Below, in pieces: positions 51 to 22,841 of a stretch of DNA of 39,144 nucleotides. Made by a program: the position numbers and the translations under genes. Source of the DNA: a virus. The stretch spans positions 1 to 39,144 of the IMG/VR virus record IMGVR_UViG_3300005454_000004, one strand, 5' to 3'. Position 1 is the first letter of the stretch. Each line of letters starts with the position of its first letter. Below the pieces are notes generated by a model, which was not told the origin of the DNA, searched no databases, and saw only the letters and a list, made by a program, of their open reading frames with translations.

Positions 51-1355
51 CCCGCGCGCTACCCGATGGAGTGGATCCGCGCGGAGCGCGATCGCTTCCA
101 GGCCGACGGCATGCTGCAGGAATTCAAGCAGGCCTACATGCTGCAGGTGACCGACCCGGCGACCAAGCCCTTCAAGGAGGACATGCTCGCCGCGCGGGAT
201 ACCAGCCCCTGGGACTGGATGCCGCGGTTCGCGATCTACGACCCGGCGCGGACCTCGAACGAGAAGCGCACCCGCGAGCACCGGAAGAGCGACCGCTACG
301 GGAAGGTCGTGGTCTCGCGCATGGGCTCGCAGATCCTCGTCCACGAGTCGGGCGGGTTCTTCTGGAAGCCGAACGAGTTCATCGCCGAACTCTTCACGAT
401 GAACGAGAAGCACGCGCCCGCGAAGCTCGGGATCGAGAAGAATTCGCTCGACGACTGGCTGCTGCAGCCCATCCGCATCGAGATGCTGAAGCGCGGCGTG
501 TCGCTCCCGCTCATCCCGCTCTCGGCGCCGCAGGACCGCTCGAAGGAGGACTTCATCCTGGGCCTGCAGCCCTTCGCGGAGGCGCGCGACATCGTGCTCG
601 TGGGCGGGCGCGCGGCACACCCGCAGCTCGTGGCCGAGTGGGCGAACTTCCCGCAGGGCCCGCGCGACATCATGAACGCGCTCGCGTACAGTCTGCGCAT
701 GTTCTCGGGCCAGCCCATCTACGCCGACTTCGGCGGCGCCAACATCGGCGACGCGCCGAACCCCGCGCGCGGCGAGACGGTCTACGTGGGCTTTAACGCG
801 AGCCCGACCGACACGGCCTGCGTGGCGATCGTGCGCGAGGGCCGGCGCCTCGCGGTTGCCATGGACGCCGCGGCCGCGGGGCCCGACGCCGTGAAGTCGC
901 TCGTCTTCGAGCTGCGAACCGCCTTCCCGCTCGCCTCATTCTCGGTCTGGACGCCCGCGGAGCTGCACGACCAGTGGCAGCGGATCGCGACCGTGCCGCA
1001 GCTGCGCGCCGAGCGCGTGGTGGTCTACCGCGGCGATCACATCGCGCCTGCGCGCGGATGCCTCTCCGACCGGATGCGCACCGAGTGGCGCGGCAAGCGC
1101 CTCCTCACCGTCGACCGGCGCGCGCGCTTGACTCTCAACGCGCTCTCGACGGGCTACGCCGCGGCGGTCGAGCGCGGCGGACGCGTCGCGGGCGAGCCCG
1201 AGCAGGGGATCTCGCGCCTGGTGGGCGAGGCGATCGAGTGCGTCGCACACATGCTGGACCGGCAGCTCGAGGCCGAGGGCCTGCCGAAGGGCGCCAACCT
1301 GGGGACCACCCCCGGCGGCGCCACGTACGTGACCGCCCATCCGGGCAAGCGCTAA
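3..1355 (+). CDS. terL: Terminase large subunit, C-terminal part (continues from 38437..39144 across the circular join)
   Basis: The frame is open from nt 3 and is in frame with the last codon (tgg) of the window. High GC3. It lies directly upstream of the portal gene. The N-terminal part at the other window end carries the ATPase motifs. Confidence 0.85.
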   Translation, partial: PICDGDVDAPTTKSNWPARYPMEWIRAERDRFQADGMLQEFKQAYMLQVTDPATKPFKEDMLAARDTSPWDWMPRFAIYDPARTSNEKRTREHRKSDRYGKVVVSRMGSQILVHESGGFFWKPNEFIAELFTMNEKHAPAKLGIEKNSLDDWLLQPIRIEMLKRGVSLPLIPLSAPQDRSKEDFILGLQPFAEARDIVLVGGRAAHPQLVAEWANFPQGPRDIMNALAYSLRMFSGQPIYADFGGANIGDAPNPARGETVYVGFNASPTDTACVAIVREGRRLAVAMDAAAAGPDAVKSLVFELRTAFPLASFSVWTPAELHDQWQRIATVPQLRAERVVVYRGDHIAPARGCLSDRMRTEWRGKRLLTVDRRARLTLNALSTGYAAAVERGGRVAGEPEQGISRLVGEAIECVAHMLDRQLEAEGLPKGANLGTTPGGATYVTAHPGKR

Positions 1356-1395
1356 AAGCCCATTTTTGACATTGGCGAGGAAGCGGGGCTACCAT
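1354..1395 (+). promoter_or_regulatory. Copy 1 of the AAAAGCCCAWWTTTG motif, overlapping a sigma70-like TTGACA(1366-1371)-18 nt-TACCAT(1390-1395)
   Basis: aaaagcccatttttgaca lies immediately after the terL stop. The same 15-nt core recurs at 6892, 14968 and 22818. Confidence 0.4.
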
Positions 1396-1405
1396 GGCCG
1401 CGCTC

Positions 1406-1419
1406 GCCCAAATTTGGGC
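1406..1419. repeat. Perfect 14-bp palindrome GCCCAAATTTGGGC followed by TTTGATCTT
   Basis: The sequence is self-complementary and identical to the palindrome at 14972-14985. It could act as an operator or as a short hairpin. Confidence 0.6.
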
Positions 1420-1440
1420 TTTGATCTTCCGGAGACCGCC

Positions 1441-1611
1441 ATGGCCGTGTCGCGCTCGCACAGCAAGAAAGCCCCCTCGCAGAATCCCGTCGGTTTCTTC
1501 AAGTGCGAGCAGCAGGGCGGCACGCACGGCACGCCGACGAAGGTCGGCGACAAGCTCTCGGGCGGACCGATGCGCGAGCAGATCTACGGCCGCAAGTCGC
1601 TCGGCAAGTAG
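1441..1611 (+). CDS. Small basic hypothetical protein (56 aa)
   Basis: ATG preceded by GGAGA (1431-1435). High GC3. The upstream part of track ORF 1366..1611 overlaps the promoter-like region, so the later start is preferred. Confidence 0.55.
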   Translation: MAVSRSHSKKAPSQNPVGFFKCEQQGGTHGTPTKVGDKLSGGPMREQIYGRKSLGK

Positions 1612-1617
1612 CGCACC

Positions 1618-1845
1618 GTGAACCCGCTCTACCTGAAAGTCGCCGCCGCGCTCGAGAAGCACGGCGTGACCTCGGCCCTCAAAGCCGACGTGGACTCGAT
1701 CTTCGCGGGCACCGACTCCCCGCCTTCCAGCGTTGTTCCTCCTGTTGTTGAGGCTGTTCCCGCCGCCGGTGCTGCGACCCCGGCGGCGGACCTTTCCCCG
1801 GTGGCCGGAATGCCAGCAGGCGGATCCGTCGGGAGCGCACCGTGA
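1618..1845 (+). CDS. Hypothetical protein (75 aa), Pro/Ala-rich C-terminus
   Basis: GTG start, high GC3, and a GTGA stop/start overlap with the next ORF. Confidence 0.6.
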   Translation: MNPLYLKVAAALEKHGVTSALKADVDSIFAGTDSPPSSVVPPVVEAVPAAGAATPAADLSPVAGMPAGGSVGSAP

Positions 1846-2036
1846 CGCGCCGCCGGAAGGGCAAGGCGAAAAGCGTCTCGATGACGGGCGGCTCGAACGC
1901 GCCCTTCGTGCGCAACGCGAAGAAGCCCGAGTCGGACGACAAGCCGCACGTGCGGCCGGGTCCCGCCTCGACCAACCGCAACGCGCAGTCCCAGCACTCG
2001 AAGCGCGTGAAGCGCCTCACCGGCCTCATGCTCTGA
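1842..2036 (+). CDS. Small highly basic hypothetical protein (64 aa)
   Basis: GTG start overlapping the previous stop. High GC3. It ends 1 nt before the portal start. Confidence 0.6.
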   Translation: MTRRRKGKAKSVSMTGGSNAPFVRNAKKPESDDKPHVRPGPASTNRNAQSQHSKRVKRLTGLML

Positions 2037-2037
2037 T

Positions 2038-4239
2038 GTGGCGCGCATCGCGAAAAAATCCCCCGACAAACCCGACGAGCTGAAGAGCTCGACGGTCGAT
2101 AGCAAGGCTGCGCCCGACGCGCTCGCGACGGGCGACAAGCCCGAGAACTGGGCCGACAAGCCCGATTCCCCCGCCCACCAGGCCGCGAAGAAGCTCTACA
2201 AGCTGATCCTCAAGGGCTTCGAGAACCAGGCCGAGCAATCGGACCGGATCGAGGAATACTGGAACATCTACAACGCGCAGCCCGATGAGAACCTGCAGTA
2301 CACGGGGAACTCGCAGGGCTACATCCCGGCGGTGCGCGACTGCGTGAACGCGCGCGCGAAGCGGGTCCTGAAGCAGCTCTTCCCGGTGAACCACAAGCAC
2401 GTCGACGGCCTCTCGTCGGACGGCCGCGTGCCGAACCTGCAGCTCTCGCTCCTCGAGCACTACATCCGCAAGACCAAGCTCAAGGCCACGGTGCGCTCCG
2501 ATCTCATCGCGGGCGACGTGACCGGGCAGTGGTGCCTCATGATCGACTGGATGAAGAGCGAGCGGCGCGTGACGAAGCTCGTGCGCCGAAACCCGATCAT
2601 CGACGAGATCGACGGCGAGGACGTGTCCGATCTGGAGATCGAGGATCCGGGGGCCGATGAGGAGGAGGACACCGAGACCGAGGACGTGATCGACGAAGGT
2701 CCCGAGATCGTGGACTTCGCGGTCGAGGACCTCACGGTGATCCCGCCCACGTGCAACGACCTGCAGCGCGCGCAGGCGGCATGCGTGCGCCTTCGCCTCT
2801 CGGAAGCGCGCGTGAAGGAGATGGTCGACGAGGGTGTGTTCATCCTCCGCGAAGGCAGCGATCTCGACGACTACTGCAAGGGCAACTTCGGGAACCTCGA
2901 GAAGCGCAACCGCGAGAAGAAGCAGACCGAGGACGCGGGCGTGAAGACCCAGGGCACGAACAAGTACGCGCTCATCTTCATGGCCTACACGAAGCTCGAC
3001 CTCGGGAAGGGCGCGAAGGAATCCGCCGTCGTCTACTTCTCCGGGCCCGACGAGATCATCGGCATCATCAGGAACCCGCTGTGGAGCGGCAAGGTGCCGG
3101 TGATCTCGCAGCCGGTCGACCGCGTGAAGGGCTCGTTCTTCGGCAAGTCGAAGGTCGAGCCCGTGAAGTTCCTGCAGTGGCAGCTTTGCGACTTCTGGAA
3201 CATGGGCCAGGACTCGGCCATGTACTCGCTGCTGCCGATCTGGGCGGTCGACCCGCTCGCCGCTCCGCAGTGGGCGACGCTGGTGATGGGGCTCGCGGCG
3301 GTGTGGCCGGTCGACCCGAACAAGATCAAGCCCATGACGAGTCCGCAGCTGTGGAAGGACTCGGCGCAGATCTGCGACCTCATCAAGCGCCAGATCTGGG
3401 AGTCGATGGACGTGAACGAGATGATGATGGGCAAGCTCCCCGCGGGCCGGAAGAACAACCAGCTCATGGGCCAGATGCAGCAGGAGCAGTCGACCAACAT
3501 CAGCGACCACGCCGACCGCTACGAGGAGGAGATGTTGTCGCCCCTCGCGGAAATGCTCTTCGAGTTCGACCAGCAGTTCCGGGAAGACGAGGTGATGATC
3601 GAGTCGCGCGGCGAGATCGGCGTCGAGGCTTCGGTGAAGACCATCCCCGTGCAGCAGTGGGGCGAGCGCATCTTCTTCCGCTGGATCGGCTCGTCCTTCA
3701 TGACGAACATGCAGCGCATGCAGCAGCAGATCGCCTGGCTGAACGTGCTGAAGGGCATCCCGCCCCAGATGCTGGACGGCCGGCGCCTCAACCTGGCGCC
3801 CATCCTCGACAAGGGCACGGAGGACATCTTCGGGCCCGAGCTCGCGCCGAAGATCTTGGTCGACGAACGCAACATGTTCGTTGTCGATCCCGACACCGAG
3901 AACGAGATCCTGCACAACGGCATGACGGTGACCGTCCACGAGGCCGACGACGACCCGAAGCACATCCAGTCGCACATGAAGGCGGCGAGCCTCACCGGCG
4001 ACCCCGCGGGGCTTTACAAGGCCCACATGGCCGCGCACATGCAGGCGATGCAGGTGAAACGCGAGAAGCAGATGGCGGCGCAAATGCCCAAGGGCCAGCC
4101 GGGCGGACCCGGCGGCGCGGGCCCGGGTGTCGCCGGCGCGCCGCGGCCGGGCGCGCAACCAGGCGCCCCGCGCCCCGTGCAGAACCCCGCCGGCGCGATC
4201 CCGCAGGACAACATGGCCGGCGCACCAGGAAGGGGGTGA
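2038..4239 (+). CDS. Putative portal protein (733 aa)
   Basis: Large ORF just downstream of terL, with an acidic stretch (DLEIEDPGADEEEDTETEDV) and a Gly/Pro-rich C-terminal tail. Size and position are typical of portals. No sequence search was done. Confidence 0.7.
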   Translation: MARIAKKSPDKPDELKSSTVDSKAAPDALATGDKPENWADKPDSPAHQAAKKLYKLILKGFENQAEQSDRIEEYWNIYNAQPDENLQYTGNSQGYIPAVRDCVNARAKRVLKQLFPVNHKHVDGLSSDGRVPNLQLSLLEHYIRKTKLKATVRSDLIAGDVTGQWCLMIDWMKSERRVTKLVRRNPIIDEIDGEDVSDLEIEDPGADEEEDTETEDVIDEGPEIVDFAVEDLTVIPPTCNDLQRAQAACVRLRLSEARVKEMVDEGVFILREGSDLDDYCKGNFGNLEKRNREKKQTEDAGVKTQGTNKYALIFMAYTKLDLGKGAKESAVVYFSGPDEIIGIIRNPLWSGKVPVISQPVDRVKGSFFGKSKVEPVKFLQWQLCDFWNMGQDSAMYSLLPIWAVDPLAAPQWATLVMGLAAVWPVDPNKIKPMTSPQLWKDSAQICDLIKRQIWESMDVNEMMMGKLPAGRKNNQLMGQMQQEQSTNISDHADRYEEEMLSPLAEMLFEFDQQFREDEVMIESRGEIGVEASVKTIPVQQWGERIFFRWIGSSFMTNMQRMQQQIAWLNVLKGIPPQMLDGRRLNLAPILDKGTEDIFGPELAPKILVDERNMFVVDPDTENEILHNGMTVTVHEADDDPKHIQSHMKAASLTGDPAGLYKAHMAAHMQAMQVKREKQMAAQMPKGQPGGPGGAGPGVAGAPRPGAQPGAPRPVQNPAGAIPQDNMAGAPGRG

Positions 4240-4242
4240 TCC

Positions 4243-4461
4243 GTGGCACGAGCGAAGAAGCGCAAGGGCAAGCAGCTGGACGAGGCCGCGGCGATGCCCG
4301 TGGCCGACGATCGCTGGCGCGCGCGGGATGACTTGCACACGATCGAGCGCGCGCATGAGGTGGTGAGCGACAGCTCGCGCCTCAAGGCCGCGAAGTCGGA
4401 GGCGAAGCGCCAGAAGGAATCCCTCGACCGCATCGCGCGCCTGGAGGGCAAGAAGCTATGA
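4243..4461 (+). CDS. Hypothetical charged, helical protein (72 aa)
   Basis: High GC3. ATGA overlap with the next ORF indicates translational coupling. Confidence 0.6.
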   Translation: MARAKKRKGKQLDEAAAMPVADDRWRARDDLHTIERAHEVVSDSSRLKAAKSEAKRQKESLDRIARLEGKKL

Positions 4462-4628
4462 CCGGCCGCATCCCCGACCAGGCGGTCCTCGAGGCGTCCA
4501 TCCAGACCCTCGTCGAGCGCTTCGAGCGCGAGCACCAGGTCGAAGTGAGCTCGATCTGGGTGGAGCACCGCGTGCCCGCCGCGGTCGAGGTGACCGTCAC
4601 CGTGCGCCGCCGGGTGAAGGCCGCATGA
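4458..4628 (+). CDS. Hypothetical protein (56 aa; below the ORF-track length cutoff)
   Basis: Read by hand as MTGRIPDQAVLEASIQTLVERFEREHQVEVSSIWVEHRVPAAVEVTVTVRRRVKAA. ATGA overlaps at both ends. Confidence 0.5.
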   Translation: MTGRIPDQAVLEASIQTLVERFEREHQVEVSSIWVEHRVPAAVEVTVTVRRRVKAA

Positions 4629-5041
4629 AGATCATGGGCATCCCGGTCGTGTTCGATCCGCGGCTCACGCAGATGCCGGCGGTCTCGCGCGGCTTCTGGC
4701 CGTTGAAGCGGATCGTGGTGGGACCCCAGTGGTACGAGCTCACGCCCGAGGCGCGGGTGTCGGTTCTCTTCCACGAGGTTCACCACTGCCTCGCGTTTCA
4801 CCTCGAGGTGCGCTTGGCGATCCTGCCGCTCCTCTTCATCGCGCCGCGCTTCACGCGCCGCATCTGCCGCGAGCAGGAGCTCGCGTGCGACCGCTTCGCA
4901 GCCTCCCAAGGCTGGGGGCTGGAGCTCGCGCGGCTGCTCGAGCAGCTGCACGACCTACCGGAAAGCGACTTTTACCCGACATGCATCGAACGCGCGCGGA
5001 CCCTGCGCGCCCACCTGGAGGACCCATGTTCAAACCCCTGA
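4625..5041 (+). CDS. Minimal M48/M56-like zinc metallopeptidase (138 aa)
   Basis: HEVHHCLAFH (HExxH-x4-H), then a hydrophobic segment (LAILPLLFIAP), then REQELACDRFAA. This resembles the E-x3-A-D third-ligand motif of HtpX/BlaR1-type peptidases. Confidence 0.65.
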   Translation: MKIMGIPVVFDPRLTQMPAVSRGFWPLKRIVVGPQWYELTPEARVSVLFHEVHHCLAFHLEVRLAILPLLFIAPRFTRRICREQELACDRFAASQGWGLELARLLEQLHDLPESDFYPTCIERARTLRAHLEDPCSNP

Positions 5042-5436
5042 AACGCGCGTTCGCCGCAGTCCTCGCCGGCATCTTCCTGCTCGCCTCGAGCCTGGTACAG
5101 GCGGGCGCCTGCTGCTCGTCGTTCTCGATCTTCCCCGACACCACGCGGAACTTCTCGTCCAGCGTGCTGCTGCCGCCCACGTACACCGACGCGATCGTGC
5201 TGGTCGCCAACGTCTCGCAGACGCAGACCATCCCGACGGGAGCGACGTGGGTCGTCTTCAGCGGCAATTGCAACTTCTACGCTCTTACGGGAGCGTCGGC
5301 CGCCGTCCCCGGCGCCACCACTACCAACGGCAGCGCGGCGATGCAGAACCCTGCGGCGTGGAATATCACGGGCTTCACGCAGGTGACGGTGGTGGCACCG
5401 TCCGCGTGCGTCGTCACCTTGTCCTTCTACCTCTGA
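5026..5436 (+). CDS. Hypothetical beta-rich protein with a signal-peptide-like N-terminus (136 aa)
   Basis: Internal ATG of track ORF 4729..5436. N-terminus MFKPLKRAFAAVLAGIFLLASSLVQAGACC. The upstream extension is Arg/Pro/Ala shadow sequence overlapping the peptidase gene. Confidence 0.6.
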   Translation: MFKPLKRAFAAVLAGIFLLASSLVQAGACCSSFSIFPDTTRNFSSSVLLPPTYTDAIVLVANVSQTQTIPTGATWVVFSGNCNFYALTGASAAVPGATTTNGSAAMQNPAAWNITGFTQVTVVAPSACVVTLSFYL

Positions 5437-5443
5437 GGCCACG

Positions 5444-6888: not shown

Positions 6889-6891
6889 CCA

Positions 6892-6932
6892 AAAAGCCCA
6901 AATTTGACACAGCCCAAATATGGGCTTAACTT
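6892..6932 (+). promoter_or_regulatory. Copy 2 of the AAAAGCCCAAATTTG motif, with TTGACA(6904-6909)-17 nt-TAACTT(6927-6932); near-palindrome AGCCCAAATATGGGCT (6911-6926) fills the spacer
   Basis: aaaagcccaaatttgacacagcccaaatatgggcttaactt. It is followed by AAGGAG (6948-6953) and the ATG at 6961. Confidence 0.45.
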
Positions 6933-6960
6933 TCGGGCAGTCGTTACAAGGAGATAGACG

Positions 6961-7797
6961 ATGAAACAGAAAAAACTCGCTGCCCTGCTTTCCTCGTTCT
7001 TCTCCTTGGGCGTGGGCGCTCCGCTCACGAGCCTCCCCAGCATGATGCAGGTGAACGGCGCGCTGGTGGACCCGGGCGGGCTCATCTCGTTCCTGAACCA
7101 GATGAACGCGGCGAACACCGCCGCCGACGGGACGAACTTCCAGACCTCGGCGGGCGCGACGATCACGCTCACCTCGCTGCAGAACCTCACCCAGCGCCTC
7201 ACGAACGGCGGCGCGGTCACCGTCACCCTGGACTCGGCGTGGGCAATCGCCAACGCGATCCCGAACGCCTTCCAGAACCAGACCTTCCCGTTCACGATCA
7301 TCACCAACGCCGGCACCACGGTCGCGACGCCGACCCTCACCGGCTCGGGCGTGACGCTCTCGGGCACGACCACCGTGCTCGCCGCCGCGGCGCGCTGGTA
7401 TCAGGGACAGATCACCCAGATCGCGACCACGACCGGCGCGCCCGTCACCTCGGGCACGACCTTCACGTCGATCGCGCAGATCGGCTCGACGAACCGCTAC
7501 ACGGTGACCCTCGGCGTGAACGCGCTGGTCCCGGTGGTGGGCCAGGCGATCTACCTCAACGTCACGGCCGGCACGCTGCCCGCGGGCTGGTATCCGATCG
7601 ACCTCGTGAGCTCGGCCACCTCGTTCGTCTGCGTGCTGCCCCCGTCGGGCACCGCCTGGACCGCGACCGCCGCCACGATCCCGGGCACCGTCACCGTGCC
7701 GGTCTCGCAGTACCAGTCGGGCTACACCGGCATCTTCTCGCCGCTCATCACCATCACCGGCATGATGGCGACCGTCACCGCCACGATGTCGGTCTAA
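6961..7797 (+). CDS. Hypothetical virion-module protein (278 aa), Thr/Ala/Gly-rich, with the leader motif
   Basis: Strong RBS AAGGAG. N-terminus MKQKKLAALLSSFFSLGVGAP. High GC3. Confidence 0.7.
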   Translation: MKQKKLAALLSSFFSLGVGAPLTSLPSMMQVNGALVDPGGLISFLNQMNAANTAADGTNFQTSAGATITLTSLQNLTQRLTNGGAVTVTLDSAWAIANAIPNAFQNQTFPFTIITNAGTTVATPTLTGSGVTLSGTTTVLAAAARWYQGQITQIATTTGAPVTSGTTFTSIAQIGSTNRYTVTLGVNALVPVVGQAIYLNVTAGTLPAGWYPIDLVSSATSFVCVLPPSGTAWTATAATIPGTVTVPVSQYQSGYTGIFSPLITITGMMATVTATMSV

Positions 7798-7807
7798 GGC
7801 CCCGACG

Positions 7808-8299: not shown

Positions 8300-8302
8300 C
8301 CC

Positions 8303-9091: not shown

Positions 9092-9101
9092 GGTGGCGAC
9101 C

Positions 9102-11555: not shown

Positions 11556-11559
11556 GCTC

Positions 11560-12774: not shown

Positions 12775-12783
12775 GCCCCGGGC

Positions 12784-14403: not shown

Positions 14404-14969
14404 AAACGCTCGCCGCACTTCGCCAGTTCCTCACGCTCGGCGTGATCATCGGGGCGCTGCCCAGCACGATCTCCAACGGGAATGCGGTCGACGCGATCCC
14501 GGTGATGAACGACCTGAACTTCATCGTGGCGCAGGTGAACGCGAACGCGGCGGCGGCCTCCTCGGTCCCGGCCTTCACGAACGTGACGTCCTTCACGCCG
14601 ACGCTTTCCTTCGGCGGCTCGAGCACGGGCATCACCTACCTCATCCAGACCGCGGCCTACGTGAAGATCGCCACCATGGTGCTCTTCACGATCGACATCT
14701 TCCTCACGAGCAAGGGCGCGCAGGTTGGGGCCGCCTCGGTGGGCGGGTTGCCGTTCGCCTCGAGCGGGAGCTTTCCGCCTGGCAGCGCGCCGACGGTCAC
14801 CATCCTCACCCAGAACGTGACCTTCGCCGCGGGCTACATCGTCGGGCTTCTGAGCGGTTCGAGCATCTCGATCATCAACCCCGTGACGGCCGCCTCCTTC
14901 AACACGCTCACGAACGTGGCGTTCGCGAACAACTCCGAGCTCATCATCACGGGCATGTACTCGACCTAA
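14400..14969 (+). CDS. Tail-fibre-like protein (189 aa), with the leader motif
   Basis: ATGA overlap with the previous gene. SNGNAVDAIPVMNDLNFIVAQVNANA resembles the conserved N-terminal segment of many phage fibre proteins. N-terminus MKTLAALRQFLTLGVIIG. Confidence 0.65.
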   Translation: MKTLAALRQFLTLGVIIGALPSTISNGNAVDAIPVMNDLNFIVAQVNANAAAASSVPAFTNVTSFTPTLSFGGSSTGITYLIQTAAYVKIATMVLFTIDIFLTSKGAQVGAASVGGLPFASSGSFPPGSAPTVTILTQNVTFAAGYIVGLLSGSSISIINPVTAASFNTLTNVAFANNSELIITGMYST

Positions 14970-14985
14970 AAGCCCAAATTTGGGC
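14968..14985. promoter_or_regulatory. Copy 3 of the motif: AAAA + perfect palindrome GCCCAAATTTGGGC (14972-14985)
   Basis: It lies immediately after the fibre gene stop and 40 nt upstream of the GTG at 15025 (RBS AAGGGGGGAA). Confidence 0.55.
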
Positions 14986-15024
14986 GGATGCGAGTAGCAT
15001 AGCGCCCAAGGGGGGAATACCACC

Positions 15025-16740
15025 GTGCCGCTCCCGGCTTTCGCTCTCAGCTACCGCGACTATCTGCAGAACGCTCTCGGGACGAACTCGTCCGAGAACG
15101 CGTCGCAGCCCATGTCGGAGAGCGAGTGGAACAGCCTCTCTCCGGACCAGCAGTGGGGGTTCCTCGGCTTCGGTTCGGGCGGGGTCCAGGTCGGCGCCAA
15201 CGACCCGCGCTACCAGGCCCTCTCGACTGCGTTCGGCGGCGGCGACAACAACCAGGTGCTCGTGATGCCTGGCACTTTCGATCCCGCGAACGTGAACAAC
15301 CGCGGGGTGACTCGCTTCACCGATCCGTCGCACGTCGGGCAGGGGGACGGCTACTACGCCACGCCCTCGAGCAACGCGACGCCAGCCGCGCAGAACCAGG
15401 GCGGCTGGAGCGATCGGGAGTGGGCCTTGAACACGGCGCTTTTGTTCGCCGGCGGCTACTTCGGTGCGGGCGCTTTGGGCGGGGAAGGCGCGATGGGCGG
15501 CGTCGATCTGGGCGTCGGCGGCGGTCTCGACCCGGAAACCATCGCGCTCGCGAGTGGCGCGAGCCCCGGGGCTGCGGCAGGCACAGCCGGGACCGCGGGC
15601 ACGGTGGCGGGCGGCGCGGCTGGAGCCGGCGGCGGCACTGCGGGCACTGTCGGTGCTGGCACTGCGGGCGCCGGCGCTGCGGGTGGTGCGACGGCGGTCG
15701 GCGGCGGTGCGGCTGCCGGTGGTGGCACTGCGGGTACGGTGGCGGGCGGTGCGGCTGCCGGTGGTGGCGCTGTGGCAGCTGGCGACGTGGCCGGTGGCGC
15801 TGCGGGCGGGACTGCCGGGGGAGGCGTGAACTGGGGGCAGATCATCCAGTCCGCGCTCGGCATGGGGTCGGGTATTTCCGGGCTCGTGGGCCGCAACGGC
15901 GGCGCGACGGCCTACGTCCCGCAGTGGCAAGCCGGCGCGGACCAGATGTGGCAGAACCTCATGCACGGCGCGGGCGACGCGTACGGCGCGCAGCGTGACG
16001 CGCTGCTGCCGTTCCTGCAGAACTCGTTCCGCGCGGGTTCGGCCGAAGTGCCGGGCGTGCAGGGCCGCATGCGCGACATCGCGAACATCGACATCGACCA
16101 GGCGAATAACCTCTTCACCGCCGGGGACCAGCTGCGCACGTCGGGGCGCGATCTCTGGACCACGGCCAACGACCCGCAGGGCGCGCTGCGCGCGCGGATG
16201 CTCGGCGAAACGCAGGAGCAATCGCGCGCCTCGAGTTCGCTGCGCGGCATCGGCATGGGCGCGCAGGCTGCTGGCCTTGAGAACGAGGCGGTGAGCAACT
16301 TCGGGATGAACTGGGAAGACCGCCAGCTCGCGCGCCAGGAGGCGGGGCTGCGCGGCATGACCGGAGCGTACAACACCGCCGGCATGAACACACAGGCGGG
16401 CGTCTCGGACCTCACCTCGGCCGCGCAGATGAATATCGGCGCTTTGAGCCTGCCGTTCGACTTCGCCAACTCGTACTCGGGCGCGATGAACAACGGCATC
16501 TACAACCCGGCTTTCGGGATGATGGGCAATCTCGCCTCGTACCTGGGCCTCGGCCAATCCGGCGGCAACAACGCGTTCAACCAGGGACAGACCAACCTCA
16601 ACAACCTCACGACGGGCCTCGGGCAATTCGGCAACGCCGGCGGATGGGGCGCGCTCTCGCGCTTCTTCGGCGGTGGTGGTGGCGGTGGTGGTGGCAGCGA
16701 CGGGGGCGTCGGCAACTGGGATAACTGGACGACTGGGTAA
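15025..16740 (+). CDS. Putative internal virion / ejection protein with a Gly/Ala-rich repeat core and poly-Gly tail (571 aa)
   Basis: GTG start. High GC3. GTAGTVAGGAA-type repeats and a GGGGGGGGSDGG tail. First of three large ORFs after the fibre gene, as in podovirus ejection-protein blocks. Confidence 0.7.
   Translation: MPLPAFALSYRDYLQNALGTNSSENASQPMSESEWNSLSPDQQWGFLGFGSGGVQVGANDPRYQALSTAFGGGDNNQVLVMPGTFDPANVNNRGVTRFTDPSHVGQGDGYYATPSSNATPAAQNQGGWSDREWALNTALLFAGGYFGAGALGGEGAMGGVDLGVGGGLDPETIALASGASPGAAAGTAGTAGTVAGGAAGAGGGTAGTVGAGTAGAGAAGGATAVGGGAAAGGGTAGTVAGGAAAGGGAVAAGDVAGGAAGGTAGGGVNWGQIIQSALGMGSGISGLVGRNGGATAYVPQWQAGADQMWQNLMHGAGDAYGAQRDALLPFLQNSFRAGSAEVPGVQGRMRDIANIDIDQANNLFTAGDQLRTSGRDLWTTANDPQGALRARMLGETQEQSRASSSLRGIGMGAQAAGLENEAVSNFGMNWEDRQLARQEAGLRGMTGAYNTAGMNTQAGVSDLTSAAQMNIGALSLPFDFANSYSGAMNNGIYNPAFGMMGNLASYLGLGQSGGNNAFNQGQTNLNNLTTGLGQFGNAGGWGALSRFFGGGGGGGGGSDGGVGNWDNWTTG
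15560..15825 (+). repeat. Imperfect tandem repeats inside the CDS that encode the Gly/Ala/Thr low-complexity segment
   Basis: Repeated ggcactgcgggyacbgtsg / gcggctgccggtggtggc units are visible in the DNA. Confidence 0.6.
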
Positions 16741-18389
16741 TGGCCTACGAAGGCGGCTACACCTCCGCAATCAACTCGCAGCAGAGCCGCGCGATGCAGG
16801 AGGCCTATCGCCAGGCCGAAATGCAGCGCATGGTGCAGACCGCGATCGCCTTCCAGCAGCAGCAGCAGCAGCGGGAGCGCCAAGCGCGCGCGCGCGCCGG
16901 ATTGGCCGAGATGCTGCCCGAGCTCACCCAGATCGGCCGCCCGCCGCCCGAGGGAGCCCAGCCGCCCGAGCCCGGCGCCTCGTCGCAGCCCATGGCGCGG
17001 CCCCAGCCGGTCCCGATGCCGTCGCCTGCTGGCCCCATCCCGCCGCCCCCCGGCGTCGGCCCCGCTTCGCCCCCGTCGGCCGCGGCAGCCGCCGCGCCCA
17101 TGCCTCCGGGCGCCGGCACGGGGGCACCAATGCCCAAAAATGGGCTTCCAGCGGCCGCAGCGCCGCCCGGGGCTGCACCGGGGTGGAAGCCGCTCCCGAA
17201 GCCGCCGGAGGCCGCCCAGGCCGGTCCTGGAGGCATTCCGCCGCCTCCGGGCGAGGGTGCCGTCATGCCGAGGACCGTGATCAGCGTGGGCGACCTCACG
17301 AAGCTGCTCGCCTCGAAGGGCATCAAGGGCACCCAGGCGCTCGACATGATCGACGAGTGGAAGCCCTACATGGACAGCCAGAACAAGGCCGAGCTCGAGG
17401 CCATGCGGGTCCAGAACCGGGCGCAGGCGGCGGCCATGAACGCGTACGCCCACGTGCTTCAGGCGCACGCCGCGCAGCAGCGCGCGGATACCGGCGCCAA
17501 TAAGCTCGACCGGGTCGACGCTCCGGTGGCCGCGGCGAAGGTGCAGAAGCTCGCCGCGGGCGGGGGCGGAAAGCCTGGCGCGGCAGCGCCCTACAAACCG
17601 CCCGAGGACCAGGCCTCGAAGGACGCGCTCGACATCCAGGCGTGGAAGTACATCCAGACCGGCAACCTGCCGTATCGCAAGGGCACGGGCGGCGGGGCCG
17701 ACCGGAACGACTCGATCACGCGGCGCGCCGGCGAGATCGCGCGCGAGCTCGGCATGTCGGCGCAGGAGATGGCGTCGAAGCCCGCCGAGTGGAAGGCGGA
17801 CGCTGCCTCGCTCTCGACGCAGACGAAGAAGCTCGACTCCATCCAGGGCGTGCTGAACTCGTTCCACAACAACCTCGACACGTGGGACTCGCTCGCGAAA
17901 GGCGTGAAGCCCGCGCTCGGCGGCAAGGCGATGGACGAGTTCGCCAAGGATCTGCGCAAGGTCGACTTCACGGGGATCCGCTCGATCGACGAGGTGAAGC
18001 TGCGCATCGAGGCGCAGTTCAACGACCCGACGGTCTCCGCGATGATGGTCGCGGCGATGGCGGCGGGCATGGACTACGCCCGCATCATGCAGGGCCCGCA
18101 GTCGGCCGCGAGCCTCACCGAGGGCGGTCGCAAGGAGGCCGAGCGCCTCATCAACGCGTCGGTTGACGACAAGGCGCGCACGGGTGTGAGGGCCGCGCTG
18201 GAGTCGGACACCGAGGGGCAGGTGAAGGGCCTGCGCGACCAGATGGACTCGATTCGCAAGCGCCTGGGCATGCGTCCCGCGGCCGGCGGCGGTGCGGGCT
18301 CCAAGGGCGAGTACGTCGAGCTCCGCAAGACGAAAGACGGGAAGACGATCGGCAAGAAAGCCGACGGCACGCTGGAGCTGCTCGATTGA
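16740..18389 (+). CDS. Putative internal virion / ejection protein with poly-Gln and a long Pro-rich region (549 aa)
   Basis: Its ATG starts on the last base of the previous TAA stop (TAATG). QQQQQQ from (CAG)6 near 16852. The Pro-rich region runs about 16900-17270. The C-terminal half is helical. Confidence 0.7.
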   Translation: MAYEGGYTSAINSQQSRAMQEAYRQAEMQRMVQTAIAFQQQQQQRERQARARAGLAEMLPELTQIGRPPPEGAQPPEPGASSQPMARPQPVPMPSPAGPIPPPPGVGPASPPSAAAAAAPMPPGAGTGAPMPKNGLPAAAAPPGAAPGWKPLPKPPEAAQAGPGGIPPPPGEGAVMPRTVISVGDLTKLLASKGIKGTQALDMIDEWKPYMDSQNKAELEAMRVQNRAQAAAMNAYAHVLQAHAAQQRADTGANKLDRVDAPVAAAKVQKLAAGGGGKPGAAAPYKPPEDQASKDALDIQAWKYIQTGNLPYRKGTGGGADRNDSITRRAGEIARELGMSAQEMASKPAEWKADAASLSTQTKKLDSIQGVLNSFHNNLDTWDSLAKGVKPALGGKAMDEFAKDLRKVDFTGIRSIDEVKLRIEAQFNDPTVSAMMVAAMAAGMDYARIMQGPQSAASLTEGGRKEAERLINASVDDKARTGVRAALESDTEGQVKGLRDQMDSIRKRLGMRPAAGGGAGSKGEYVELRKTKDGKTIGKKADGTLELLD

Positions 18390-20017
18390 GCCTACAGGCC
18401 GACTGGGATGCCGCGGTTCCCGTGGGCGTGAAGCCCGGCGGCGATCTCGCTTCGCAGTGGGAGCAGGCGACGCCGGTCAAGATCCCGACGAAGTCGGCCG
18501 CGGCACCGAAGGAGGAAAACCCGCGTTCGGCGAAGAACCTCGTGGGCGCCGCGATCGAGCCCGGCATGTCGCTTGCGTCCGGCGCCGTCGCGGGTCCGGC
18601 CTCGGGCCTCGCCGGTATCGCGGGCGCGGTGCTGCCGGGACCGCCCGGGCAGGGCGCGCGCTGGGCCGAGAACGTCGGCCAGGGCCTCACCTACCAGCCG
18701 CGCACCACCGGCGGACGCAACGCGATGGAGGCGATCAGCTATCCGTTCCGCAAGGTGAGCGAGGGCGCGAACGCCGCCGGCGAGCGTATCGCCGACGCGA
18801 CCGGCTCCCCGGCGCTCGGTGCCGGCGTCAACACCGCGATCCAGAGCATCCCGCAGCTCGTGGGCGCGAAGGGCGCGCAATTGCTCAAGAAGCCGCCCGC
18901 GCCGAAGCTGGATCCGGACGTGAAGACGCTCATCGACCGCGGCGTGAAGGTCACCCCGGGCCAGATCGTGCCGAAGCTCAAGCGCGCGGAGGAAGCGGCG
19001 CAGAGCATCCCGTTCGCGGGCGACTTCGTGAAAGACGCCCACGGTCGCGCGGTGGAGTCGTTCAACCGCGCCGGCTGGAACGACGCGCTCAAGGCCGCGG
19101 GCGAGAAAGAGATGCCCGCGACGGTGAAGACCGGCAACCAGGCCTCGGCGTACGTGAAGGAGCGCCTGGGCGACCGGTACGAGGAACTGCTCGGCAAGAT
19201 GGTCGGCCGTCTCGACAATGCGCCCCCGAAGAATGCTCTGCCGGCTCCGGGCCAACTCGGTCAGCCGCCGAGGCCTTCGCTGCGCCAGGAGCTTGACCAG
19301 CTGCTGGCCCTCGCGAAACAGGACGGCGGTCTGCCGCCGCGCGAGATGCGCCAGCTGCGGCGCATCGTCGACAAGGAGATCAAGGCCAAGTTCGACAAGA
19401 ATGGCGCGGCGCCGGGCGACACGCTGAAGGCCATCCAGGAGACGCTGCGCAAGGAAGAGGGCGAGTTCCGCACGGGCGGGCCCTACGAACGCAAGCTCGC
19501 CGACGCGATCAAGGAAGCCGACGCGGCCGTGCGCCGGATGGTACGCGAGGCGAACCCGAAGCACGCTGCCGAGCTCGACAAGATCGACGCCGGCTACGCC
19601 CGCTTCAAGATCGCGCAGCGCGCCGCGGGATCGGTCGGCAACCAGGAGGGAGTCGTCAAGCCCTCGGCCTATGACCGCTCGGTGCGAACCAGCGACCGCT
19701 CGAAGGACCACGCCCGCTACTCCGAGGGCAAGGCCCTGCAGCAGGACCTGTCGGGCGCCGGCAAGCGCGTCCTCTCGGACACGCTGCCCGATTCGGGCAC
19801 GCCGTTCCGGATCTCGCTCATGCACGCCCTCACCAACCCGAAGGCGCTCGCCGCGATGGGACTCGCCGGTATCCCGACCGCGATGCTCTACAGCCCGATG
19901 GGCATCCAGCTGATGCAGCGCATGCTCACCCGACCGCCAGCCGCGGGCCGCGCGGGCGCGATCGCCGCGCCGATCGGTGCCGCGCAGTACGGCCAACTTC
20001 CCCCGCCGCCGCAGTGA
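18386..20017 (+). CDS. Putative internal virion / ejection protein (543 aa)
   Basis: TTG start overlapping the previous stop (TTGA), so the start is uncertain. High GC3 throughout. Confidence 0.65.
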   Translation: MSLQADWDAAVPVGVKPGGDLASQWEQATPVKIPTKSAAAPKEENPRSAKNLVGAAIEPGMSLASGAVAGPASGLAGIAGAVLPGPPGQGARWAENVGQGLTYQPRTTGGRNAMEAISYPFRKVSEGANAAGERIADATGSPALGAGVNTAIQSIPQLVGAKGAQLLKKPPAPKLDPDVKTLIDRGVKVTPGQIVPKLKRAEEAAQSIPFAGDFVKDAHGRAVESFNRAGWNDALKAAGEKEMPATVKTGNQASAYVKERLGDRYEELLGKMVGRLDNAPPKNALPAPGQLGQPPRPSLRQELDQLLALAKQDGGLPPREMRQLRRIVDKEIKAKFDKNGAAPGDTLKAIQETLRKEEGEFRTGGPYERKLADAIKEADAAVRRMVREANPKHAAELDKIDAGYARFKIAQRAAGSVGNQEGVVKPSAYDRSVRTSDRSKDHARYSEGKALQQDLSGAGKRVLSDTLPDSGTPFRISLMHALTNPKALAAMGLAGIPTAMLYSPMGIQLMQRMLTRPPAAGRAGAIAAPIGAAQYGQLPPPPQ

Positions 20018-20018
20018 G

Positions 20019-21368
20019 ATGTCGCGCCGGCTCCTCCTGATCGACACCTGGAGCAACTTCCTCGACTTCGCGATGCGAGCGCAGGAATGGGGCTGGGAGG
20101 TGGTGTGGTGGGACCGCAACCGGAAGGACGGCTCGGTGCGCACCGCCGGGCATGGCATCGTGAATCGCCTCATCGACTACGACCAGCTGCGGTCGAAGTA
20201 TCTCGACTGGGCCGATCTCATCGTGCTCGCCGACAACACGAACTACCTCGACATGCTGGAGCCGTACCGGGAGGCGGGTTATCCCATCTTCGGGCCGTCG
20301 TGCGAGGCCGCCGAGCTGGAGCTCGATCGCGCCAAGGGACAGGAGGCGATGAGGCGCGCGGGCCTTAACATCATCCCCGGCGTGGAGTTCCATGATTACG
20401 ACGCCGCGGCGCGCTTCGTGGAGAAGCATCCGACCTATCTAGTGTCGAAGCCCTCGGGCGACGCCAACAAGGCGCTTTCGTATGTAGCGCCGAACACTGC
20501 GGCGCTCCTCTACATGTTCGAGCGCTGGGCGCGCAACGAGAAGTACGTGCGCGACGCGCGCAAGCACGGCTTCATCCTCCAGGAGAAGAAGACCGGGTGC
20601 GAGTTCGCCGTGGGCGGCTGGTTCGGTCCTGACGGGTGGTCGCGCTTCTTCTACGAGAACTTCGAGTTCAAGAAGCTCATGGCGGGCGACCTTGGCCCCA
20701 ACACGGGCGAGATGGGGACGCTCTCGATGTACGTGCGGAAGTCGAAGCTCGCCGACATCGCTCTGAAACCCATGACCAAGCAGCTCAAGGCCCTCGACTA
20801 CGTGGGCTTCGTCGACGTGTCCGGCATGGTCGACGACGCGGGCGAGTTCTGGCCCTTCGAGTTCACGATGCGCCCGGGCTGGCCCACCTTCCACAATCAG
20901 ATGGCGACCACCGAGGGCGACCCCGCGCAGTGGATGCTCGACAAGCTCGCCGGCCGCGACACGCTCAAGGTGCGCGAGAACCAGGCGTGCGTCTCGGTGC
21001 TGATGGCGATCCCCGACTTCCCCTATTCGAAGCTCACGAACAAGGAAGTCTCGGGCATCCCCGTGTACCTGAACGACGCCGACCGCAGCGCCGTCCACCT
21101 CTCGGAGGTGAAGCTGGGGGAGGCGTACGTGCAAGTGAACGGCCAGCCGTTGAAGATGCCGTGCTATGTCTCGTCGGGAGACTACGTCGCCGTGGTGACG
21201 GGCGTCGGCGAAACCATCACCGGCGCGCGGCGCAGCGCCTACTCGCAGGTCCGCAAGATCAAGATGCCGGCCGACCCGTTCTACCGACCCGACATCGGCG
21301 CGGGGCGCCTCGTGAAGGAGTTGCCCCTCGTGCAGAAGCACGGCTTCGCGCAGGGGTTCAAGGTATGA
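20019..21368 (+). CDS. PurD (glycinamide ribonucleotide synthetase)-like ATP-grasp ligase (449 aa)
   Basis: Collinear with E. coli PurD as I remember it: [22 protein letters not shown] vs [33 protein letters not shown] vs [37 protein letters not shown] vs [49 protein letters not shown]...RPDIG vs GGRVLCVTALGHTVAEAQKRAY...RKDIG. The N-terminal GNGGREHA motif is absent. Confidence 0.85.
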   Translation: [449 protein letters not shown]

Positions 21369-21895
21369 GCGACGTCCCCATCGCCCCCGCATTCAACGAC
21401 GCGAACATCGAGCGCGCGCTGATCGAGGCGCAGGGCGACCTGCACATCGCCTCCCAGCTCCTCGGCCACGTGACGGTCCTCAAACTCGACCGCGCGATCC
21501 GCGCCTCCGACCGCCTGCAGCAGGTATTCCTCACGATCAAGCAGGTGAAGGCGCTTCCGGAGTACGACCGCATCTCGCAGGAGCAACTCGAGCAGGAACT
21601 GGTGCGCCGCCTAACGCTCTACCGGGTCGACGCGATGGACGCCCTGCACGACCTCGCGACCATGCCGATCGACGAGAATTCGGCCATGGCGCAAGTGAAG
21701 CTCGCCGCGGCGGCGCGGCTATCGGGATCGGTCACGCCGCAGGCCGGCGGCTCCGACATGGAGCAGACGCTCCGGGACCTGAACGAGCTCTACCACCGCG
21801 AGGCGCCGCGCATCAAGATCACGCGGCAACAGACGACAATCGAGTTCGCGCCGGGTGAGCGGGCAATCGAGGGGTCGGCAGCGCCTGCGGATTGA
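21365..21895 (+). CDS. Hypothetical protein with a Fis/NtrC-type (HTH_8-like) N-terminal helix-turn-helix (176 aa)
   Basis: ATGA overlap with the ATP-grasp gene. ERALIEAQGDLHIASQLLGHVTVLKLDRAIR resembles the A-x3-G-N-x3-AA-x2-LG-x-R-x-L pattern. Last gene of the long + operon. Confidence 0.6.
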   Translation: MSDVPIAPAFNDANIERALIEAQGDLHIASQLLGHVTVLKLDRAIRASDRLQQVFLTIKQVKALPEYDRISQEQLEQELVRRLTLYRVDAMDALHDLATMPIDENSAMAQVKLAAAARLSGSVTPQAGGSDMEQTLRDLNELYHREAPRIKITRQQTTIEFAPGERAIEGSAAPAD

Positions 21896-22799
21896 ATTCG
21901 GCGCTCGCCTCCACGCGGGCGATGATCTCCTCGAGGCGCGTGTCGGCGGTGCGCTGGCGCGCATCCAACCGTTCCCAGTGCGGCACGATCTCGTCCAGGT
22001 CGTAGCAGAAGAGCGTGTCGCGGACCGCGACGTGCCCGCGGCGCTCGAGGAGCCGCATCGCGACCTTCCAGTGGCGCACGCGCTTGGAGATTTCGGCGGG
22101 CACCACGAGGCGCGCGCCCTCGAGCTGCGGGCACTCGTCGAGGAACGCGTAGGCGGCCGATAGCGTGGGCTCCCCGAGCGGGGCGATGCGCGGCGACACC
22201 TGCCACACCATCTTGAAGGCCCGCGGCGGCAGCATCGCGCGGCGCGCGCAGCCGAGCTCGGCGCTGCGCATGCCCATGTACGCCTGCGCCTGGCGCTCGG
22301 CAACGACTGGGGCGGTCAAGCGCATGCCCACGGCGGCGGCGACCTCCGGGCACGCGGGCGCGGCCGCGATGAAGTCGTAGAGGCGACGACACTGCTCGGC
22401 CCTGGGGAAGTTGCTGCGCACCCACCGCCGGTGCTCGTTCCAGTTCGGCGGCCGGTACACGACCGCGATCTCGCTGGTGCCCTCGGTCCAGGCGTCCAGT
22501 TGCGGGATCGAGATCGGGCATTCGGAGATCAGCTGGGCCGGGTGCGCGGCGATGTTCTCCAGCGCCACGTAGGCGCGGTCGTAGATGCACAGGCCGCCTT
22601 CCCGGTTCCACGCCGCGAGCTGTGTGTCGAATTCTTGCGGGTTCAGGACGATGAAGGGATTCAGGTCCGCGAGCGCCGCGCGCCGCAGGCGCAGGGGATT
22701 CCACAGGTTGTTCTTATTGCGGACGAGGACCCGCCCGTAGCGCCGCAGGAGCTCGCGCGCGGTTTCCTCCCGATTGCGGGTGTGAACGATCTCGGTCAC
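21819..22799 (-). CDS. Orphan hypothetical protein (326 aa), the only minus-strand gene between the virion and lysis modules
   Basis: GTG start. High GC3 over most of its length. The last ~25 codons have lower GC3 and overlap the convergent + gene by 77 nt. I recognise no motif. Confidence 0.6.
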   Translation of the reverse strand: MTEIVHTRNREETARELLRRYGRVLVRNKNNLWNPLRLRRAALADLNPFIVLNPQEFDTQLAAWNREGGLCIYDRAYVALENIAAHPAQLISECPISIPQLDAWTEGTSEIAVVYRPPNWNEHRRWVRSNFPRAEQCRRLYDFIAAAPACPEVAAAVGMRLTAPVVAERQAQAYMGMRSAELGCARRAMLPPRAFKMVWQVSPRIAPLGEPTLSAAYAFLDECPQLEGARLVVPAEISKRVRHWKVAMRLLERRGHVAVRDTLFCYDLDEIVPHWERLDARQRTADTRLEEIIARVEASAEFNPQALPTPRLPAHPARTRLSSVAA

Positions 22800-22814
22800 G
22801 GTCGGCGCCCATCT

Positions 22815-22841
22815 TTGAAAAAGCCCATATTTGAGTATAGA
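22815..22841. promoter_or_regulatory. Copy 4 of the motif (AAAAAGCCCATATTTGAGT) in the 66-nt divergent intergenic region
   Basis: TTGAAA(22815-22820)-15 nt-TATAGA(22836-22841) on +. On - the same bases read TATACT, a -10-like element for the orphan gene. RBS AGGGAGG precedes the ATG at 22866. Confidence 0.35.

Follow-up and report, generated by a model that had tools for sequence, protein, structure and literature searches.

A dispersed 14-bp palindromic motif overlies late-operon promoters of an uncharacterised temperate phage and may mark the operators of a phage regulator

Introduction

Operators of phage 434 are 14 bp long (ACAA-N6-TTGT) and are bound by dimers of Cro/C1-type helix-turn-helix (HTH) proteins; in operators of this type the arms are invariant and the centre varies. 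In the immI region of phage P22, Mnt and Arc repress Pant, and in phage P1 the late promoters have, instead of a -35 hexamer, a palindrome at about -22. The latter promoters are Lpa-dependent (PMC8198154). The stoperators of cluster A mycobacteriophages are asymmetric 13-mers, present in more than 20 copies per genome, intergenic, orientation-dependent and bound by the immunity repressor (PMC9283540), and L5 gp71 is the system used for comparison below (PMC9283540, PMC6550527). Here we describe a short dyad, GCCCA-N4-TGGGC, that recurs at operon junctions in IMG/VR record IMGVR_UViG_3300005454_000004 (positions 1-39,144; this whole 39,144-nt stretch is called the window throughout). The motif lies on the three best host-type promoters of the structural and lysis genes and recurs at corresponding positions in close relatives, so that a phage regulator most likely binds it. 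On balance we lean towards the view that the sites are operators of a phage-encoded HTH protein controlling sigma-70 late promoters, probably by repression.

The ends of the window share a 50-bp overlap and an identical 39.1-kb contig is present in a public read-set assembly, from which we conclude that the window is a complete circular phage genome of ~39,094 bp, with a G+C content of 67%. The phage is temperate and belongs to an uncharacterised group: megablast of 12 kb of the window against GenBank phages gave no match, the nearest GenBank-phage capsid by protein is 30% identical, and, going by that best match, no cultured relative of the group is known. Its relatives are metagenomic contigs and prophages of Paraburkholderia/Burkholderia. 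An earlier note on this DNA had pointed out the motif at four junctions and suggested that it might mark binding sites of a late-gene regulator, phage-specific promoters or weak hairpin attenuators. The observation is confirmed and is stronger than first described, and its interpretation is partly supported.

Results

The motif is a 14-bp site with invariant 5-bp arms around a variable, A/T-rich 4-bp centre. Its 9-mer AAAAGCCCA has four matches, all on the plus strand (1354, 6892, 14968 and 22819), where 0.04 would be expected and none of 100 shuffles reached four; the earlier statement that four same-strand copies of such a 9-mer are unlikely by chance is thereby borne out. The full dyad GCCCAWWWWTGGGC also has four matches (1406, 6912, 14972 and 17132; expected 0.00), the 13-mer AAGCCCAWWTTTG has seven exact ones (four plus, three minus), and the core GCCCANNTTTG is matched 11 times, counting by strand (expected 0.10). 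These 11 correspond to nine physical sites: 1358 (copy 1a), 1406-1419 (1b), 6896 (2a), 6912-6925 (2b), 14972-14985 (3), 17132-17145, 22807 (4a), 22823 (4b) and, on the minus strand, 35157-35167. When over-represented 10-mers were sought de novo, the top six words (6/6) all belonged to the same motif. Every motif sequence quoted by the earlier note was found. Three of its four starts of the AT-rich core were exact (1354, 6892, 14968) and the fourth falls at 22819, not 22818; the full palindromes at 1406-1419 and 14972-14985 and the in-gene copy at 17132-17145, in the Pro-rich part of an ejection-protein gene, were recovered as described, whereas its third palindrome, 6911-6926 (AGCCCAAATATGGGCT), has perfect 6-bp arms about a centre, AATA, that is not self-complementary. 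Two sites, 22807-22817 (plus) and 35157-35167 (minus), had not been listed in it.

Eight of the nine sites are intergenic, in spacers of 55-89 bp, and one (17132) lies within a gene. The dyad arms do not vary in any copy of the window or of the relative L154, in which gene 6961 is 80% and terL 82% identical to that of the window; the centres read AATT, AATA, AAAA, TCTT or AAGA. The core GCCCANNTTTG is asymmetric, and where two centre positions deviate they do so in one and the same half of the site in every case. There are, on the other hand, four full dyads; the other five copies (1a, 2a, 4a, 4b and 35157), although non-palindromic, keep GCCCA-NN-TTTG. All five non-palindromic copies are co-directional with local transcription or the downstream gene, and two of them, 4a and 35157, have the 12-mer GCCCATCTTTGA in common. 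Invariant arms with a free centre are the pattern of 434-type operators rather than of a hairpin that covaries. Several other identities were considered for a short repeated site and ruled out: a pac/cos site or replication iterons (the copies do not cluster but are spread over 22 kb), integrase arm sites (they are not close to attP or the integrase gene), and a restriction site (the enrichment is opposite to the expected avoidance).

When both strands of the circular 39-kb genome were scanned for sigma-70-like promoters (-35 matching TTGACA at five or more of six positions, spacer of 16-18 bp, -10 of TAnnnT), only four places emerged, 1366, 6904, 22815 and 34613; under a stricter scan 1366 and 22815 were the sole matches. 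Three of the four, promoters P1, P2 and P4 (Table 1), carry a motif copy over the -35 in identical register, GCCCA-NN-TT-TGACA or -TGAAA, the -35 hexamer being the final six bases of the 14-bp site. The note's claim that two copies supply a TTGACA hexamer therefore stands for sites 1 and 2, to which copy 4a adds TTGAAA in the same register. P2 and P4 share one layout, in which copy a (14 bp) is followed by 2 nt, copy b (14 bp), 1 nt and the -10: P2 reads GCCCAAATTTGACA ca GCCCAAATATGGGC t TAACTT, and P4 reads GCCCATCTTTGAAA aa GCCCATATTTGAGT a TAGACT. The palindrome reported earlier between the -35 and -10 of site 2 is copy 2b, which occupies the 17-bp spacer of P2. At P1 the second copy is a perfect palindrome at about +4 to +17 and not in the spacer. 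The overlap with the core promoter thus takes three forms (the -35 is part of copies 1a, 2a and 4a, the spacer is taken up by 2b and 4b, and 1b lies near the start), and relative to the start site the motif is found at four different positions, approximately -36.5, -20.5, -28.5 and +10.5. A sigma-54 promoter or a Fis site was ruled out by a mismatch in spacing.

Copy 3 has no recognisable -35. A -10-like TAGCAT follows it and may be a weak promoter, P3, for gene 15025-16740, as judged from position and from L154, which has TAGGAT at equal spacing although the 9 nt in between differ from those of the window. At site 4, a minus-strand -10 that is a good match (TATACT, 22835-22840) overlaps the -10 of P4, so that the copies there could also control the divergent 326-aa reverse gene (21819-22799), for which no family match was found.

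Strong sigma-70 promoters with sites inside the spacer, direct repeats at P2 and P4, and a terminator-like hairpin just past the P1 start are what one would expect if the sites loaded a Q-type antiterminator, like the Q-binding elements (QBE) of lambda and phage 21. This is nonetheless highly improbable: neither P2 nor P4 is followed by a terminator ahead of its first gene, the P1 hairpin is only ~4-17 nt from the start, copies exist away from promoters, and none of the scanned proteins had a Pfam or PHROG match to the Q family, a member of which Q-type sites (lambda, 82, 21) require.

Close relatives such as L154 were reached through protein homologues, after motif searches of other relatives had come up empty. 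The contig of L154 covers six of the places at which the window has the motif, and has it at all six (1a, 1b, 2a, 2b, 3 and the in-gene copy); L164, of the same lineage, has site 1, and L155, L156 and L159 (82-87% identical) keep copy 2a although their upstream genes differ. In alignments of the window with L154, DNA between the motif copies and the promoter hexamers (-35 and -10) diverges, while these elements themselves are retained. At P1, for example, the -35 and -10 are conserved and the spacer has diverged; copies 1a and 1b are 48 bp apart in one of the two phages and 49 bp in the other, and the counterpart of 1b in L154 is GCCCATCTTTGGGC. At P2, the block conserved in five phages (the window, L154, L155, L156 and L159) starts exactly at AAAGCCCA, runs through TTGACA, and conservation picks up again at the invariant TAACTT and the ribosome-binding site. 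L154 has all of copy 2b, L155 and L159 have its right half only, and L156 lacks it. The in-gene copy at 17132 reads the same in the window and in L154, although an 11-nt indel adjoins it upstream and only 3 of the 18 nt adjoining it downstream are identical; this argues for selection on the DNA and not on the protein. The gene that holds it, 16740-18389, is a single open reading frame in the window and is split near the palindrome in L154 (18799-19281, and 19336 onward), with several Pro-rich indels; the split may be a real difference or an assembly error.

Beyond these relatives the motif disappears. It was absent from 54 and a further 75 IMG/VR relatives and from six Burkholderiales prophages (L065-L070, in Paraburkholderia/Burkholderia genomes), ~1.7 Mb in total. 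The motif-free distant relatives are 52-71% identical in portal, 69-78% in capsid and 33-69% in gene 19977-21368, and L160 (79%), L162 and L163 (terL 76-77%) likewise have no GCCCA motif. The motif is thus missing from lineages at or below roughly 79% identity and is held in position by the closest relatives, a divided answer to the earlier note, which had named a lack of conservation in related phages among its grounds for refutation. The promoters reach further: post-terL TTGACA promoters stand at the P1 junction in motif-free L005, L004 and L163, and P2-orthologous promoters precede the homologue of gene 6961 in L002, L005, L006, L045, L160, L161 and L162, with a -35 of TTGACA (TTGACG in L161). 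The suggestion that the sites are phage-specific promoters is not supported by this evidence, since the promoters are of the ordinary sigma-70 type (TTGACA/TTGAAA, 17-18 bp, TAnnnT) and persist in motif-free relatives. The suggestion of regulator-binding sites tied to promoters at operon junctions is supported: the -35 and -10 hexamers of sites 1 and 2 hold, and relatives have promoters at the same junctions.

Some motif-free relatives carry a different palindrome, CAAAG(T/C)(G/T)AGC...CAC, with a core like GTGAGCGCTCAC. Two copies bracket the orthologous P2 in L162 (15355 and 15413) and in L160 (1008 and 1077), and one copy lies upstream of P2 in L005 (9896) and L006 (positions 17723 and 5763 in L006). 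This suggests a lineage-specific replacement of the putative operator at the capsid-operon promoter; because the promoters persist across relatives while the palindrome differs, the promoters appear to be old and shared and the palindrome specific to the lineage. This GTGAGC-type palindrome was found only by reading orthologous promoters, and a de novo search of the relatives for analogous dispersed palindromes returned nothing comparable with at least three exact copies. Broader searches added little. IMG/VR scans for AAAGCCCAAATTTGGGC, AAAAGCCCAWWTTTGACA and AAGCCCAWWTTTGACA matched mostly unrelated contigs, the majority of low G+C; a metagenome scan for the two-copy pattern, which is too strict even for L154, gave 0 matches; and a metagenome search with terL yielded two distant relatives and nothing else. 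Occurrences of AAGCCCATTTTTGACAT ~2 kb upstream of distant capsid homologues (L166, L170, L197, L219) were rejected as a coding coincidence, encoding the conserved peptide KPIFDI of a portal-like gene, and are not regulatory.

The same comparisons bear on whether the element might be read by the host, either by a nucleoid protein or global regulator or, as a UP-like extension of the -35, by RNA polymerase itself. The block AAAGCCCAWWTTTGACA moves with the promoter as a unit in five phages whose upstream genes differ, and no common phage regulator could be demonstrated, both of which would suit such an element. However, copies also occur away from promoters (17132, 1406 and 14972), close relatives with the same promoters and probably similar Burkholderiales hosts are entirely without the motif, the prophage loci L065-L070 hold no copy, and UP elements are A/T-rich, unlike a dyad whose GC arms are invariant. 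We consider a host-factor or promoter-intrinsic element very unlikely.

Much the same holds for a function at the RNA level, in which the copies would act as weak intrinsic terminators or attenuators, processing sites, or stabilising 5' or 3' hairpins; there is little probability in it, even though several features point that way. Local hairpins of -8.4 to -9.0 kcal/mol can form, the inverted repeat at 1355-1422 folds at -35.2 kcal/mol (z = -3.9), copy 1b is followed by TTTGATCTT (TTTTGACCTT in L154) and was flagged as terminator-like, and a P2 hairpin is predicted in the window, L154 and L155, with a similar inverted pair in L159. Nevertheless, the five non-palindromic copies, out of nine, cannot form a hairpin, and stems never covary while the centre varies. 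The site 4 fold is no better than chance (z = 0.18), the site 1 fold of L154 does not surpass that of shuffles (z = -0.14), and L156 keeps copy 2a and the promoter without a pairing partner. On the plus strand a T-run follows copy 1b only, with none after copies 3 and 17132 (the T-run at copy 3 is on the untranscribed strand), the stems of just 5 bp (-8.4 kcal/mol) fall short of an intrinsic terminator, and an Rfam search of the window matched no family, which also counts against an RNA element. Attenuation by hairpins, as proposed earlier, is accordingly not supported as the main function; an RNA role could coexist at copy 1b, where the hairpin and T-run are conserved in L154.

Table 1. Motif copies, promoters and other features of the window. 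Promoters are given as -35 hexamer, spacer length (bp) and -10 hexamer.
Feature	Coordinates	Strand	Remarks
Copy 1a, AAAAGCCCATTTTTGACA	1354-1371	+	last six bases are the P1 -35; overlaps terL stop; kept in L154 and L164
Copy 1b, palindrome GCCCAAATTTGGGC	1406-1419	.	~+4 to +17 of P1; followed by TTTGATCTT
Copy 2a, AAAAGCCCAAATTTGACA	6892-6909	+	last six bases are the P2 -35; invariant block in window, L154, L155, L156, L159
Copy 2b, GCCCAAATATGGGC	6912-6925	.	fills P2 spacer, 2 nt past -35 and 1 nt ahead of -10
Copy 3, AAAAGCCCAAATTTGGGC	14968-14985	.	directly 3' of fibre-gene stop; conserved in L154
Copy 6, GCCCAAAAATGGGC	17132-17145	.	Pro-rich segment of gene 16740-18389 (ejection protein)
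Copy 4a, GCCCATCTTTGAAA	22807-22820	+	last six bases are the P4 -35 (TTGAAA)
Copy 4b, GCCCATATTTGAGT	22823-22836	+	fills P4 spacer; 2-nt and 1-nt gaps as for copy 2b
Copy 5, GCCCATCTTTGAGG	35154-35167	-	in spacer 35146-35234; 9-22 nt upstream of ATG (35145) of 91-aa XRE gene
P1, TTGACA-18-TACCAT	1366-1395	+	upstream of 56-aa gene 1441-1611 and portal operon
P2, TTGACA-17-TAACTT	6904-6932	+	upstream of gene 6961-7797 and capsid genes
P4, TTGAAA-17-TAGACT	22815-22843	+	upstream of lysis cassette (start 22866); divergent from reverse gene 21819-22799
Fourth promoter, TTGACG-17-TACCGT	34613		drives Cro-like gene
TAGCAT, -10-like hexamer	14995-15000	+	9 nt past copy 3; TAGGAT at equal spacing in L154
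AGACA-type palindromes	33782-33795, 33805-33818, 34579-34592, 34622-34635, 35190-35203
91-aa XRE/Cro-C1-type HTH protein	34870-35145	-	Pfam HTH_31, HTH_26, HTH_3; PHROG 'transcriptional repressor' families
terL	stop at 1355 (TAA 1353-1355)	+	670 aa; spans window ends
Structural/lysis region	1 to ~25 kb	+	portal, capsid, tail/ejection and lysis genes
Portal gene	2038-4239	+
Capsid	~9.1-10.5 kb	+
Integrase	25244-26281	-
Immunity region	33.7-35.6 kb

A palindrome census and a looser scan revealed a second family, [AG]GACA-N4-TGTC[TC], with five copies, all in the immunity region. Its geometry (AGACA-N4-TGTCT) is the 5-N4-5, 14-bp arrangement of the GCCCA set. The one at 34622-34635 takes up the spacer of promoter 34613, the same placement as 2b at P2 and 4b at P4, and another, that at 34579, overlaps the CI-like gene at its start codon. 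From these positions the AGACA-type sites are probably the CI/Cro operators; with a 14-bp dyad in a sigma-70 spacer at what is almost certainly the CI/Cro switch, the phage would already use this design. A near-copy of the GCCCA motif, one T short (GCCCATCTTGAG, 33768-33779), lies directly beside the leftward AGACA-type operators.

From 34213 to 35576 the immunity region encodes, in order, a CI-like protein (34213-34584, minus strand, 123 aa), a Cro-like protein (34649-34855, plus, 68 aa), an XRE protein (34870-35145, minus, 91 aa) and a CII-like protein (35235-35576, plus, 113 aa). Promoter 34613 leads into the gene of the Cro-like protein and is divergent from that of the CI-like one. The layout is unusual, in that the 91-aa XRE gene is convergent with the Cro-like gene and there are two divergent control regions. 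The three XRE-type HTH proteins (123, 68 and 91 aa) have different recognition helices, and the 91-aa protein, for which no relative was found in the PDB, is a distant paralogue of the CI-like one. A CI/Cro pair normally shares one operator set; with three XRE proteins, two operator sets and one of these presumably shared by CI and Cro, the 91-aa protein is left for the GCCCA set. The early and immunity promoters carry AGACA-N4-TGTCT, and the only GCCCA copy in that region, copy 5, lies upstream of the 91-aa XRE gene beside an AGACA-type operator (35190). By this elimination and position, we infer that the 91-aa XRE protein is the best candidate for the motif binder.

Directly upstream of terL lie genes for a 209-aa J-domain (DnaJ) protein (37629-38258) and a 61-aa protein with four conserved cysteines (Cys4; 38255-38440). 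Among all fetched loci, homologues of the two were found only in the motif-bearing L154/L164. They occupy the spot expected for a small terminase or a late regulator, and no small terminase was recognised in the window.

Discussion

The reading that we find somewhat better than an even proposition is that a dimeric Cro/C1-type HTH regulator, with the 91-aa XRE protein as candidate, binds the 14-bp sites, and that these are operators laid over the sigma-70 promoters that head the portal (P1), capsid (P2) and lysis (P4) operons. In the copy that contains the -35, the right operator arm would have been sacrificed to keep TTGACA or TTGAAA, and the second copy would cover the spacer up to the -10 (P2 and P4) or the first transcribed bases (P1). 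The bound protein would then exclude RNA polymerase or block its escape, repressing the late promoters in the lysogen, during early infection or both, independently of the immunity operators. A role as roadblocks or auxiliary sites might fall to the copies at 14972 and 17132, and copy 5, ahead of the XRE gene, would provide autoregulation.

The sign of regulation is the point at which an activator has to be weighed. A late activator from the early-right operon, with the Cys4 61-aa or the CII-like 113-aa protein as candidates, could instead turn on promoters P1 to P4, as Lpa, Ogr and C do in phages P1, P2 and Mu. Such a protein normally requires one fixed geometry, and the four different positions of the sites relative to the start would be tolerated by a repressor but usually not by an activator. 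The -35 hexamers are consensus or nearly so (TTGACA twice, TTGAAA once) and the spacers of 17-18 bp are optimal; together with the fact that motif-free relatives keep orthologous consensus promoters, this indicates that the promoters should fire unaided and that a motif-binding activator seems not to be required. Moreover, a protein on these sites would exclude or trap RNA polymerase, since they extend over the -35, over the spacer as far as the -10, and over the first bases to be transcribed. The sites do mark exactly the heads of late operons, site 3 has a conserved -10-like TAGNAT without a -35, and the small Cys4 protein just before terL stands in a typical late-regulator position and is common to the motif-bearing L154/L164; the Lpa-dependent late promoters of phage P1 are a precedent (PMC8198154). 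Pfam and PHROG gave no match to any known late-activator family, and we think activation unlikely.

Good constitutive promoters before the capsid and lysis genes have to be kept silent in the lysogen of a temperate phage, and the AGACA-type operators differ in sequence, so that the early operators cannot silence the late promoters here. We favour repression through the GCCCA sites, against which several observations nevertheless weigh. No homologue of the 91-aa XRE protein was found among 5.8 billion proteins, though at least four other phages share the motif; this is a weak negative, since the immunity regions of the other motif-bearing phages lie outside the recovered contigs. The DnaJ-domain and Cys4 proteins, the only checkable early-region proteins shared with L154/L164, are alternative candidates for the binder. 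Site 3 lacks a -35, and its conserved TAGNAT would suit an activator-dependent promoter; at sites 1 and 2 the copies, paired as inverted repeats, are also able to form RNA hairpins (-35 and -17 kcal/mol); and the 16-bp centre-to-centre spacing places paired copies on opposite helix faces, which is unusual for cooperative dimers.

A more elaborate scheme, which we put forward only tentatively, is silencing in two tiers: CI/Cro operators would control the early promoters, and a second, dedicated repressor with the dispersed GCCCA set would shut the late promoters and block read-through at orphan sites, its specificity being swapped between lineages (the GTGAGC-type palindrome elsewhere). If repression is the correct reading, several constitutive late promoters would each be silenced directly, unlike the single antiterminated or activated late promoter of lambda, P22, P2 and Mu. 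An operator swapped between close lineages while the promoter is kept would be a natural example of the evolution of regulatory specificity in phages. The motif would offer a testable cis-regulatory regulon for widespread uncharacterised temperate phages, found as Burkholderia/Paraburkholderia prophages and in soil metagenomes, and, in practical terms, ready-made operator/promoter pairs with a short list of proteins.

Compared with described systems, the motif is most likely a new, fairly ordinary example of a familiar phage control element in an unstudied phage group. Like stoperators, it is one short site dispersed in short intergenic spaces, in promoters and away from them, its non-palindromic copies follow the local direction of transcription, and it can contain the -35 hexamer. 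Unlike them, it has nine sites and not more than 20, and four copies are true dyads, not asymmetric 13-mers bound by a monomer; moreover, the early lytic promoters of the window carry the AGACA motif, which makes the immunity repressor an improbable binder of the GCCCA sites. The window yielded no protein with a domain of the stoperator type. With early promoters that carry another site, four dyads and only nine copies, the set falls outside the stoperator family as defined, although silencing in two tiers, if true, would be a Gram-negative counterpart of stoperator-type genome-wide silencing.

As in the C1 regulon of phage P1 (PMC8198154), putative operators of one regulator are scattered genome-wide beside the promoters of separate operons, and as in the late promoters of that phage a palindrome lies between the -35 and -10 positions. 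Those late promoters, however, are without a -35 and need Lpa, whereas the -35 hexamers of the window are consensus; the C1 operators are asymmetric 17-mers, and no C1 or Lpa homologue was detected in the window. The immI region of P22 offers a parallel in function, in that a second small repressor, apart from the immunity repressor, would silence a strong lytic promoter in the lysogen. Mnt and Arc, though, are ribbon-helix-helix proteins acting at a single promoter, while the candidates here are HTH proteins with at least three target promoters.

The lambdoid and 434 operators differ from the present sites in serving PL and PR, whereas the window sites are on late promoters (morphogenesis and lysis) over 22 kb; several copies here yield one arm to the -35, the copies are 16 bp apart centre to centre, and the binder is a candidate. 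In function the two arrangements resemble each other, and they have further features in common: a 14-bp dyad whose outer arms do not vary and whose A/T-rich centre does, two sites per promoter, which overlie the -35 or lie between it and the -10 of sigma-70 promoters, XRE/Cro-C1-type HTH proteins encoded in the same genome, and a second palindrome of the same geometry at the immunity promoters.

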